A stretch of DNA of 64,000 bases from an uncultured Syntrophus sp. (GCA_964571695.1 CAZNDG010000003.1:15261-79260); one strand, 5' to 3'; counted from the first letter of the stretch, positions 15,750-25,736 are shown. Notes: generated from the sequence alone by a model not told the origin. Numbers and translations are program-made.

Positions 15750-18700
15750 ATGAAAAGAACAATCACCGTCGCCGTAGCCGTCCTGTTGACGGCGATTATG
15801 ATGCTTGTGCCGCTGGCGGTGCTGGCCGCTCCGGTGGGCAAGATCAGCCAGATCGAGGGCAACGTCGATATCACCCGGGCCGGGCAGGCGGCCATGAAGG
15901 CCCTGCTGGGCGATCCGGTCAATCAGGGGGACATCCTTCGGGCCAAGAGCAAATCCAAGGCCGAGGTCACCTTCACGGACGGCAACATCCTGCGCCTTGC
16001 CGAGGGTACCAGGGTGCGGATCACCAAGTACGATAATCGTGAGAATCAGAAGAGTTACATGGACCTTTTCCGGGGGAAAACCCAGAGCGTGGTCAAAAAT
16101 CTCCAGAAGGGCAGCGCCTATGAAGTCCACACGGCAACCTCCATTGCCGGGGTCCGCGGGACCATCCTGATCAACTTCTTCATCAACGGGGTGAGCGGCG
16201 CCGTACTGAAGGATGGACCCGGTTACGGCTACAACAAAAACATGCCCGGGGACGTGAAGACCATCGCCCCGGGTCAGGCCATGATCGTCACCGCTCCCGA
16301 TCAGAAGCCGATCGTCAAACCGGCGACGGCGGCGGAAATCGATCAGCACATCAACGACACGACGCCGGCGAAGGACCAGGAAAAGGGCGAGGAAAAGAAG
16401 GAAGAGACGGAGAAAAAACAGGACGAAAAGGGCAAGGACGAAGGCAAGAAGGATGAGGCCCCCAAGGGCAAGGAAGAAGAGAAGAAGGGGACATCCGATA
16501 CTGGCAAGAAGGACGAAGGGAAAAAGGAGGAAGCCAAGAAGGATGAATCCGGTGGCGCCGGTAAAAGCAGCGAAGGTGGTTCCGGTTCCGGTGGCTCGGG
16601 TGGTACGACCGGCGGGGAAGGGACCACGGGAGGCGGCTCCGGGACCACGACGGAAGGAACGACCGGAACCACCGGTTCGACCACCGGTACGACCACGGGA
16701 GGAACGACCGGCGGGACCGGGACTTCCGGCGGCGCCACCTCGCTGCTGGGCAAGACCGATGCCGACCTCGCTCAGCAGCAACAACAGCAGCAGCAGGTCC
16801 AGCAGCAGCAACAGCAGGTCCAGGCGCAGCAGCAGATCCAGCAGCAACAGCAGGTCCAGCAGGAAACCACCCAGGCCGCCCAGCAGGCCAAGGAAGAGCA
16901 GCAACAGCAGCAGCAACAACAACAGCAGCCGACGACCACCTACACAACGGCGACGGCGACCATTCCCGTAACGCCGGGAAGCCCGTTTGCCAGCGGGACG
17001 GTGGCGACTTCCATCGACGACAAGACCAACACGGGGACGACGGGCGTATCGGGGACCCTGAGCGCCGGCAGCGCCGGCAGTCCTTCCGTTACCAGCCTCG
17101 GCTCCGTTCCCATGAGTGACGGCGGCGTCTATGATTCTTCCCTCGCCTCGGTGCCCGGCTCCTGGTACGGACTCTTCACCGGCGTTTACCGGAAAGGGAC
17201 CGCCATCGGCCTGTTGACGAGCGCGGACCTCTATGACCCCAACTACATCGCCGGGGGGGAGATCAAGGCCAGCGGGACGATGCAACGGACGCCGGTGGCG
17301 GCTACGAACGACACGGCGCTCCGGAACTTCAACGATATCCCCGTTCCGGTCCTGGGCAGCTATGGACAAGCAATGGAAGAATCGATGGTTTCCGGCCTCT
17401 TGAAGGGGTATGGGACGACCACGGGGGGTATCCTCGGCTTCTGGGGCACAACCGCCGAGGGCGGTAGCTATGAGGGCTTCGGCTCCCCCTGGCAGGGTAT
17501 CATCGGCCGGTACGGCGACTATTACGACTCGGTGCACGAGGGGTATGTTTCCTACGCCCTCCTGGGCAATTTTGCCGGTGAGGACGACCTTTCCGGCGGC
17601 CATACCAAGATGAGCGCCGATTCGATCTACTACCTGGACGAGAACTACCTGGGTACGGCCAGCTTCGAGTACCGGGGCTATAAACCCGCCGGCGACGCCT
17701 ATGGAGTGGCGGGTACGGGGGTTTACAAACTGGCTTCCCTGGCCTGGCGTGGTTACTGGGGGGTGGATGAGGGTTATTACCATGGCCCCGCTTCGCTTTA
17801 TCGAGGGGAGTACGACAGTGAATACGGTTACAGTATAATGAACCTCGTCGCCCATGAATCGGGCCTTACCGGCGGCGTGAAACCCTTCTGGACGGGGGCC
17901 ACCCGTCTGGTCGCCATGGGCAACATCCTGGACGCCGAGATTGGTGAACCGGTATCCGGCGCCGCCTACGCGGGGCCGTTCCTCTGGAATTCCGGCCTTG
18001 CCGGCCAGTCCGTGGCCGGTGTGGACATCCCCGATGCGGAATTTACCGGGATCTCCGCGGGGATCTGGAAAGACGGCACGATGAGCGGCTCGGCCTACGG
18101 TATCTACAAGACGGCGGCCGGCCAGGCCGGCTGGCTTGCCGGCGCCCTGGACGGACAGTATTTTCCCGAACTGGGGATGTGGAAGGCGGAGGGCGACCTG
18201 ACGCCCCAGCAAAGGATCTCGGGGCTGCCGACGGAGGAACTCGAGGTGTTCCACAACTTTGCCTTTGGTGGACTCGGTGGCGCGTTCGCCGGTGGCCAGG
18301 GAACGATTGCCAATGAATACGGGATGATGCAGACGACTTTCTATGCTAAACCATTCTACGACGAGCAGGAGTATCTGGATAAACTCATCCCCCTGCGCTG
18401 GGGGATCTACAATCTCCGGAGCGTGTACGGGAACTCCTTTGCGGGTAAGCCGGCGGGCGGGGTTTCCTGGTCGGCTAAAGTGGGCGGTTACGGTCCCACC
18501 CAGATGAACGCCCCCTTCTACTATCTCGCCGATGTCGCCGGAGGCTCATGGGGAACCGACGGCACGATTTCCGGCCAGTTGGCGGGCCGCTATATGACCC
18601 CTCTGTATCTTGGCGTCATGTCCGGACCCTACTACGGTCTCTTCACGGTGGAAGGGACGGGAGAAACAGGGGAATACGGCGGCTGGGCCGGCCAGAGCAT

Positions 18701-25736: not shown

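Follow-up and report, generated by a model that had tools for sequence, protein, structure and literature searches.

The closest described relatives of the locus reported here are the type 11 secretion systems (Slam1/2, NilB and HrpB, with the cargo TbpB, LbpB, fHbp, HpuA, hemophilin/HrpC and NilC), in which an outer-membrane protein of tetratricopeptide repeat (TPR) and DUF560 parts stands beside a Sec-dependent cargo whose N-terminal part varies and whose C-terminal eight-stranded barrel is conserved (PMC12282271; PMC8406197). Some of this cargo is Skp-dependent and the system has been described as predominantly proteobacterial (PMC12282271; PMC8406197), and the 2025 survey of the cargo makes no mention of FecR, Desulfobacterota or Nitrospirota (PMC12282271). 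Here we analyse GP1 and GP2, two giant repeat proteins encoded in a 64,000-nucleotide (nt) stretch of DNA from an uncultured Syntrophus sp. (GCA_964571695.1 CAZNDG010000003.1:15261-79260; hereafter the window, with positions counted from its first letter). They fit best as very large, repeat-built cargo of a transporter that is Slam/type 11-like but divergent; their export, topology and role are what we infer from sequence and gene context.

The likeness to type 11 systems extends to an outer-membrane protein with an N-terminal periplasmic TPR part and a C-terminal barrel of ~290 amino acids (aa), an adjacent gene for a Sec-dependent cargo, a cargo with variable N-terminal part and conserved C-terminal beta domain, and the involvement of Skp (PMC12282271). 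The repeated lobes of TbpB, each a beta 'handle' plus a beta barrel, are conceptually similar to the two-module unit described below. Unlike type 11 systems, however, the outer-membrane proteins of the window fail the PF04575 profile directly, only their orthologues passing it; the hosts carry the labels Deltaproteobacteria/Thermodesulfobacteriota, Nitrospirota and Nitrospinota; the cargo lacks TbpBBD and lipoprotein-C domains and a lipobox, carries a FecR-like domain and reaches 2000-7000 aa with up to 18 units; and no TonB-dependent receptor or metal-uptake genes lie nearby.

Giant adhesins of the LapA, SiiE and Bap types and the 'periscope' proteins are also giant, Cys-poor tandem arrays of beta domains in which conserved ends surround a variable array; repeat number varies among relatives, and evidence of recent intragenic duplication is seen here as well. 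These proteins use Ig-like, cadherin-like or RTX repeats together with a type I secretion system (T1SS), a sortase or a type V system (T5SS), whereas GP1 and GP2 combine a Sec signal peptide and a Slam-like partner with a unit three to four times the size of an Ig-like domain and without Big, cadherin or RTX matches. As regards a LapA-like T1SS in particular, a retention-module match is seen in GP1 only and is sub-threshold, and both proteins have no RTX repeats and a Sec signal peptide. As for type V secretion, no Autotransporter, two-partner secretion (TPS) or POTRA/ShlB matches were obtained, and the C-termini resemble GTAAG[VI]xK, with no aromatic end.

The super-repeat

The super-repeat proved genuine, and its building block is a new module predicted to be all-beta. 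GP2 comprises, in order, a signal peptide, a FecR-like domain, a low-complexity linker, a degenerate unit, six super-repeat units and a C-terminal domain, and its true start is likely the ATG at 15750 (Table 1). The motif [RSHPNT]WG[IV][YWE] occurs exactly seven times in the protein (aa 889, 1218, 1541, 1872, 2304, 2717 and 3062), whereas shuffles of its residues contain it 0.049 times on average and never more than twice; a sequence-only reading of this DNA, made before our analysis, had located six of these anchors to within 0-2 nt and had set the fifth at 22630 instead of 22641, 11 nt off. The six inter-anchor segments, U1 to U6, are mutually similar in BLASTP comparisons (25-44% identity, E 1e-4 to 1e-21; 75% for U4 vs U5), and the sub-motifs GYWL, DGGAY.G[YF], AGYL.G and GM[WF], which that reading had quoted, recur in register across their alignment. 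The super-repeat of about 330-430 aa that it had proposed holds for these units (323-432 aa), but not for the seventh anchor, which opens the C-terminal domain and starts no seventh full unit. The extra ~100 aa of U4 and U5 are an insertion between their two sub-modules.

A hidden Markov model (HMM) built only from the GP2 units detects three units in GP1, at aa 610-872, 904-1326 and 1381-1774 (E 4e-7 to 9e-23), and the strings that had been quoted as a sign that GP1 reuses the sub-modules are present there. Ahead of its first unit, GP1 also has a linker and then an Ig-like stretch. This stretch (aa ~380-450, ~5808-6017 on the minus strand) matches an NCBIfam OmpL47-type domain below threshold (E 1.3e-4); GP2 is without it and has a poly-Q tract at that place. 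The extreme composition that had been remarked upon, rich in G, Y, W, A, T and S with almost no Cys, was borne out by counting: GP2 contains G 16.5, A 10.0, T 8.5, S 8.1, Y 6.1 and W 2.4% with 1 Cys, and GP1 carries 2 Cys.

The units of GP2 are alike as protein and diverged at the DNA level, with the exception of a 735-nt block that is exactly repeated in U4 and U5. The flanks of this repeat have diverged. It represents either a recent duplication or gene conversion between the two units or an assembly artefact, and as an exact duplication it points to ongoing repeat expansion in GP2. A misassembly at this point would favour the view that the giants are an assembly chimera or a spurious long open reading frame (ORF) in high-GC DNA. 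That explanation, the least likely of those considered, is effectively refuted, because one recorded protein (P0174) is identical to GP1 and belongs to a cluster whose 26 sequences come from NCBI, JGI, ENA and Logan; in addition, architecture and synteny are common to hundreds of homologues, and the units are conserved as protein, not as DNA.

The anatomy of the unit was derived from 391 near-complete units of family members, with a consensus drawn from 238 units less than 45% mutually identical. Unit length has a median of 324 aa and a second mode at 400-500 aa, caused by insertion between the halves. The consensus consists of a module A (WGIy..gG.y..W.a..GG...d.GYWla.i.gg.W..g.l.G.l.G.yLT.t..G.i.G...G.Y...tW.a.s.Gtw), a module B (Gl.GGt.slW...w...i.S.n...tTyDgGAy.G..gG...l.G...aLYidP.GnAGyL.G..l.G..Yp.igMwea.G) and a short linker as its third part. 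Modules A and B are distantly homologous to each other (hhalign probability 89.7%, E 2e-6, 89 columns), and the C-terminal domain opens with an A-type module of ~100 residues (98.6%, E 7e-16), which is why the seventh GP2 anchor belongs to that domain and not to a full unit. From these two relationships the basic building block is a module of ~110 aa and the super-repeat an A+B pair; as judged by profile comparison, the ~330 aa unit is an ancient A+B duplication.

The beta-rich nature that had been suggested for the unit agrees with an AlphaFold2 model of U3 from a 10-sequence alignment (predicted local distance difference test, pLDDT, 75.7; predicted template-modelling score, pTM, 0.76), which is almost purely beta and contains two meanders of ~eight long strands each, corresponding to A (residues 1-121) and B (141-257), followed by a less ordered tail. 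Fibre or sheet formation, suggested along with it, finds no support in these data. The C-terminal domain was modelled with higher values (pLDDT 86.5, pTM 0.86) as an A-like sheet, two helices and ~eight long strands.

Searches against described families

By all tests applied here, the repeat belongs to no described repeat class, as the sequence-only reading had suspected. When GP1, GP2 and six other members were compared with Pfam and NCBIfam, only the N-terminal FecR domain (PF04773; 34.7 bits vs a cutoff of 24 in GP2) scored above threshold. No RTX, cadherin, Big/Ig-like, PKD, YD/RHS, FG-GAP or haemagglutinin profile matched the unit in these eight proteins, and the isolated sub-threshold Big_13, PKD or DUF matches all fell outside the units. 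A 10-sequence unit profile gave no match to PDB sequences at E <= 10, and a 6-sequence profile gave two matches at chance level (E 0.6-0.9). With Foldseek, the U3 model had no match at E <= 1e-3 in PDB and BFVD, the best being generic antiparallel barrels with E >= 0.013 and template-modelling (TM) scores < 0.2. Neither profile nor structure searches, therefore, place the unit confidently in a characterised family. The C-terminal domain likewise had no significant sequence or structural neighbour (none at E <= 1e-3 vs PDB). Searches of the literature on FecR with giant proteins, on FecR with Desulfobacterota and adhesin, on PF10082/BBP2_2, and on FecR with Skp and TPR returned nothing relevant.

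Three further candidates were set aside. The outer-membrane barrel, START-like and TbpB/HpuA structures that recurred in Foldseek all had E >= 2e-3 and TM <= 0.3, which makes them noise or at most a lead; YD/RHS repeats, considered for the 'TYDGGAY' motif, found no Pfam or Foldseek support; and a porin-cytochrome or conductive protein was dismissed because almost no Cys, and hence no CXXCH, is present, and aromatic richness alone is no evidence.

The structural searches also bear on the idea that the modules are membrane-embedded beta-barrels, or secreted self-assembling matrix or amyloid-like subunits, and do not form a monomeric stalk. With much G, Y, W, T and S and hardly any Cys, the composition does resemble that of outer-membrane barrels, and the best non-significant Foldseek matches were barrels of this kind, such as TamA, PorB, OmpF, FapF and intimin. 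Nevertheless, these matches all have E >= 0.02 and TM <= 0.2, the proteins end in ...GTAAGVxK or similar with no aromatic beta-signal, and we know of no outer-membrane protein with tandem barrels, so we regard this idea as improbable.

Family, architecture and hosts

The spread of the repeat, on which the sequence-only reading had proposed a profile search, proved considerable. An exhaustive HMMER search with the unit profile in 1.84 billion cluster representatives (clusters at 50% identity) recovered 479 proteins at a threshold of E <= 1e-3, of which 257 reach E <= 1e-30; the largest protein has 6991 aa and 19 matched stretches. Word-indexed searches undercount the family (6 proteins with the unit profile and 8 with the C-terminal domain profile) because the index is limited on G/T/A-rich sequence, and such counts are no sign of rarity. 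In ~180 sequences the architecture is constant: a signal peptide, one or two FecR-like domains, 0-18 units and a C-terminal domain of ~250 aa, which typically ends in F[ST]GTAAG[VI]xK, with a subset having a different C-terminus. In one sub-family (P0008, P0012, P0016, P0021, P0043 and others) two tandem FecR-like domains go together with a C-terminus ...GAGTW..., which the C-terminal domain profile does not match. The source records of the family proteins read 'hypothetical protein' or leave them unnamed.

One genome per species was scanned with the C-terminal domain profile, and 36 loci were obtained, 35 in metagenome-assembled genomes (MAGs) and one in the genome of Candidatus Magnetominusculus xianensis, with no cultured isolate among them. 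They are labelled as Deltaproteobacteria/Thermodesulfobacteriota (Syntrophorhabdaceae, Syntrophobacterales, Syntrophus, Desulfobacterales and Desulfobacteraceae including Eth-SRB1), Nitrospirota (including Ca. Magnetominusculus) and Nitrospinota. Nitrospirota versions have zero units and consist of the FecR-like and C-terminal domains only, and many other members have a single unit or the B half alone. From these repeat-free and one-unit forms it follows that the conserved core is the outer-membrane protein plus the FecR/C-terminal-domain protein, and that the super-repeat, set between the two conserved ends of the latter, is an insert able to expand. Long forms occur in MAGs labelled Syntrophales, Syntrophorhabdaceae, Syntrophobacterales, Desulfobacterales/Desulfobacteraceae or plain Deltaproteobacteria, and include that of Eth-SRB1, which we take to be the partner bacterium of an ethane-oxidising archaeon. 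A locus on a 1.4-Mb contig of a Syntrophorhabdaceae MAG (L010) has at least 4 tandem units of ~600 aa each, followed by two shorter matches; a unit of nearly twice the usual size implies a large insertion within it.

This is a sizeable unannotated family, confined, within what the searches recovered, to uncultured anaerobes. The FecR domain, the C-terminal domain, the A+B duplication, the gene cassette and the abundance of the family in public metagenomes all go beyond what had been noticed in the window before. Its description would group proteins now labelled 'hypothetical protein' or 'tetratricopeptide repeat protein' in public records into a family with hundreds of clusters, and would bring two new beta domains, the C-terminal domain and the A/B module, and a conserved cassette of three genes into the catalogue. 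The small versions of ~650 aa (the P0006 type has 664 aa) offer a tractable experimental entry, and the long forms are candidate cell-cell or cell-surface contact proteins in organisms with almost no genetic tools.

The paired outer-membrane protein

In 18 of the 20 informative loci (of 36), the gene immediately before that of the giant, on the same strand, encodes an outer-membrane protein, and this is also the case for both GP1 and GP2. The two copies in the window (525-538 aa, 51% identical) match several TPR families (E 1e-10 to 1e-16) and BBP2_2 (PF10082) in Pfam, and their TPR_Slam scores of 21.9 and 26.5 bits are below the cutoff of 35.2; this family is matched weakly by 17/19 orthologues. 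Ten orthologues pass PF04575 (SlipAM) with 26-52 bits vs a gathering cutoff of 22 (51.8 bits for P0283), nine of them over nearly the whole 288-position model from position 1 and P0298 over positions 59-281. The window barrels align end to end with these PF04575-positive orthologues (BLASTP E 1e-26 to 1e-53; hhalign 100%, E 5e-61), and the outer-membrane proteins of two loci (L021 and L027), both encoded upstream of the same cargo family, share 87-90% identity with PF04575-positive proteins. Since the alignment to orthologues that pass PF04575 is full-length, the window proteins are, by transitive homology, divergent members of the Slam/DUF560 superfamily. Their closest relatives (85-89% identity) come from MAGs labelled Syntrophales or 'Pseudomonadota', so that the window probably derives from a member of the Syntrophales.

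A different role for this protein is suggested by the PgaA/BcsC/EpsL porins, in which TPR and beta-barrel are also joined in one outer-membrane protein. The giants would then be a periplasmic or envelope scaffold that never leaves the cell, the TPR-barrel protein a porin or exporter for another substrate, and the FecR protein its periplasmic partner. FecR domains are classically periplasmic, as in the FecA-FecR-FecI system, and the window barrels match BBP2_2 and, weakly, EpsL. Moreover, PF04575 overlaps PgaA-like porins (PMC8406197). Set against this, the invariant neighbour is a protein gene and no polysaccharide pathway accompanies it: no glycosyltransferase, synthase or polysaccharide gene was found among the conserved neighbours of the 36 loci. 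In addition, 2000-7000 aa of folded beta modules are hard to house in the periplasm, the frequent neighbour Skp is a chaperone for unfolded clients bound for the outer membrane, and a unit number of 0 to 18 is what length-variable surface proteins display. A purely periplasmic scaffold is thus less likely, and in our judgement doubtful.

Proposed export, topology and signalling

GP1 and GP2 probably represent a novel type of exported or surface protein of very large size, and a surface location is plausible in the context of the signal peptides, the upstream Slam-like gene and the downstream Skp gene, which is found in 12 of the 28 related loci. On balance, we lean towards cargo of a divergent Slam/type 11-like secretion system in which the super-repeat serves as a stalk of variable length. 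Sec would export the chain to the periplasm, where Skp would keep this long, beta-rich, Cys-free chain unfolded; the Slam-like protein would recognise the conserved C-terminal domain, which would thus act as targeting signal, and move the chain across the outer membrane, and the repeats would then fold outside the cell. They would form a stalk or spacer between two conserved end domains, its length set by the number of units; which of these ends would be distal is, like the stalk function, an inference from the arrangement.

Several observations weigh against a Slam-like export. Skp is missing from more than half of the loci with downstream sequence, and none is present in the 857 nt of the window downstream of GP1. 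The window barrels alone have no match to PF04575, only to BBP2_2, even at E <= 10, and some PgaA-like polysaccharide porins likewise fall within PF04575 (PMC8406197). No TbpBBD or lipoprotein-C eight-stranded barrel can be recognised in the C-terminal domain, which has no Pfam match and only a Foldseek match to TbpB at E 0.14 and probability 0.04. To our knowledge, all type 11 cargo is far below 2000-7000 aa. FecR domains are usually periplasmic, which fits a protein kept partly or wholly within the envelope, and the same fit is offered by a gene for a CHASE2 protein with a class III cyclase domain, found within 2.5 kb in 8 of the 28 loci.

The last two points lead to a topology in which the C-terminal part crosses the Slam-like barrel and the FecR-like domain stays periplasmic, with the disordered linker rich in K/E and G/T threading the pore in a LapA-like manner; the FecR-like domain would then contact the TPR domain or an inner-membrane CHASE2 sensor and couple surface events to cyclic-nucleotide signalling. 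The FecR domain is the conserved N-terminal feature of the family and is followed by a linker of ~200 aa, and roughly one locus in three has a CHASE2 cyclase gene as neighbour of the cassette: it occurs within the fetched flanks in 11 of the 36 and, in 8 of these, lies within ~130 nt of the cassette. In Burkholderia, exported FecR-domain proteins are paired with CHASE2 kinases (PMC5192318), and aa 28-92 of GP1 (of GP1 only) weakly match the NCBIfam LapA retention module (E 7.6e-4). The last match, however, lies far under its cutoff (19.7 bits against 50); the 64-kb window contains no CHASE2 gene; and FecR domains need not be periplasmic, because NCBIfam names the Leptospira FecR-domain proteins Lsa33 and Lsa19 adhesins. 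We consider a tethered form a serious alternative, though one of rather low probability.

The CHASE2 proteins themselves are membrane proteins of 650-770 aa with an adenylate/guanylate cyclase domain (Pfam CHASE2 E 2e-66), encoded on either strand and often 20-130 nt from the cassette. They adjoin it in L005, L008, L012, L013, L016, L017, L019 and L022 and lie 3-8 kb away in L003, L021 and L027.

Exported FecR proteins have been described in other bacteria. The Leptospira LipL45, Lsa33 and Lsa19 and the Burkholderia LysM-FecR proteins share with GP1 and GP2 a signal peptide directly before FecR (PF04773), with no anti-sigma or transmembrane part, and the pairing of LysM-FecR with a CHASE2 histidine kinase parallels the CHASE2 pairing in a subset of our loci. 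Unlike the giants, they have ~200-450 aa, lack super-repeat and C-terminal domain, and have no known Slam-like pairing. The layout of the FecR/FpvR/FoxR anti-sigma regulators, which join a cytoplasmic anti-sigma domain, a transmembrane helix and a periplasmic FecR domain and have an extracytoplasmic function (ECF) sigma factor and a TonB-dependent transducer nearby, is also different from that of GP1 and GP2, where the FecR domain stands alone behind a cleavable signal peptide; no sigma factor or TonB-dependent receptor occurs among the conserved neighbours or in the scanned parts of the window.

As cargo of a Slam-like transporter, the giants would widen the scope of Slam/type 11-like secretion, from host-associated Proteobacteria with small cargo that scavenges metals to environmental anaerobes with giant repeat proteins, Nitrospirota and Nitrospinota among them, and would raise the question of how a barrel of ~300 aa without an evident energy source handles clients of several thousand residues. 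A bolder version, which we think unlikely, is that of a deep-branching, unrecognised Slam-like system beyond the Proteobacteria proper, whose cargo of up to 7000 aa would be a trans-envelope antenna with a periplasmic FecR-like domain reporting to CHASE2 cyclases or other sensors. If so, an adjustable, aromatic-rich beta stalk could reach a partner or a surface in Syntrophales, Syntrophorhabdaceae and Desulfobacteraceae of the Eth-SRB1 type, and a new fold family would come with a new mode of outer-to-inner-membrane signalling.

Neighbouring genes

The features of both cassettes and of the genes around them are collected in Table 1.

Table 1. Positions of GP1, GP2, their parts and neighbouring genes in the 64,000-nt window
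Feature	Position (nt)	Strand	Basis or remarks
GP1	858..7157	-	2099 aa; architecture as GP2; ORF, Pfam, unit HMM
GP1 C-terminal domain	861-1652	-	Family C-terminal domain comparison
GP1 unit 3	1653-3017	-	Unit HMM
GP1 unit 2	3018-4448	-	Unit HMM
GP1 unit 1	4542-5330	-	Unit HMM
GP1 FecR-like domain, after signal peptide	6543-7091	-	Pfam, family N-terminal HMM
Outer-membrane protein paired with GP1	7312..8928	-	TPR + beta-barrel; 154 nt upstream of GP1
KASIII-like genes, ole-like set	9174-10283; 10267-11154		Window
Alpha/beta hydrolase, ole-like set	about 11250-12146		Window
AMP-dependent ligase, ole-like set	12289-13986		Window
Outer-membrane protein paired with GP2	14141..15718	+	TPR N-terminus, ~300 aa C-terminal beta-barrel; stop 13-31 nt before GP2 start
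GP2	15732..25736	+	3334 aa ORF
GP2 Sec-type signal peptide (MKRTITVAVAVLLTAIMMLVPLAVLA)	15750..15827	+	Without lipobox Cys; read from translation
GP2 N-terminal FecR-like domain, aa 30-213	15819..16370	+	Pfam FecR core aa 69-145; family-wide N-terminal HMM also matches
GP2 low-complexity linker	16371..16988	+	K/E-rich, then G/T/S-rich, then poly-Q; translation; tandem repeats in DNA
GP2 degenerate 'unit 0', aa 577-869	17460..18338	+	Unit HMM E 4.8e-7; BLASTP of region to U1 and U3 significant
GP2 anchor motifs	18396, 19383, 20352, 21345, 22641, 23880, 24915	+	First nt of each
GP2 U1, 329 aa	18396..19382	+	Anchors, BLASTP, alignment, HMM
GP2 U2, 323 aa	19383..20351	+	Anchors, BLASTP, alignment, HMM
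GP2 U3, 331 aa	20352..21344	+	Unit modelled with AlphaFold2
GP2 U4, 432 aa	21345..22640	+	Y/S/G-rich insertion of ~100 aa between A and B
735-nt exact block, copy 1 (U4)	21698..22432	+	DNA self-comparison
GP2 U5, 413 aa	22641..23879	+	75% identical to U4
735-nt exact block, copy 2 (U5)	22976..23710	+	DNA self-comparison
GP2 U6, 345 aa	23880..24914	+	B half divergent
GP2 C-terminal domain, 273 aa	24915..25733	+	A-like sheet, two helices, ~8 long strands; ends ...FSGSAAGVV
Skp/OmpH periplasmic chaperone gene	25805..26380	+	68 nt past GP2 stop; PF03938 E 2.9e-25; NCBIfam Skp
3-beta-HSD/epimerase-family reductase, ole-like set	26377-27426		Start overlaps skp stop codon by 4 nt

An ole-like lipid gene set (9174-13986 and 26377-27426) is split by the GP2 cassette. 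A functional link between the two was discarded, none of the five genes having a homologue in any of the 36 loci; because no homologue occurs near the cassette there, this layout seems peculiar to the present genome. A DUF3047 protein (PF11249, E 1e-44) is encoded near the cassette in five loci (L006, L012, L013, L017 and L019), which probably reflects shared ancestry rather than a functional link, the last four being closely related. About 8 kb from the GP2 cassette, on the minus strand (34659-36227), lies a gene for a BrkB-family membrane protein fused to a cyclic-nucleotide-binding domain, which could be a coincidence or a link to the cyclase association of other genomes. Other regions, with an acetyl-CoA transferase/GNAT fusion and an ADP-forming acyl-CoA synthetase at 28307-32588 and a dense series of multi-PAS sensor histidine kinases with a PAS-LuxR regulator at 36907-43850 and 51215-53749, are ordinary chromosomal context.

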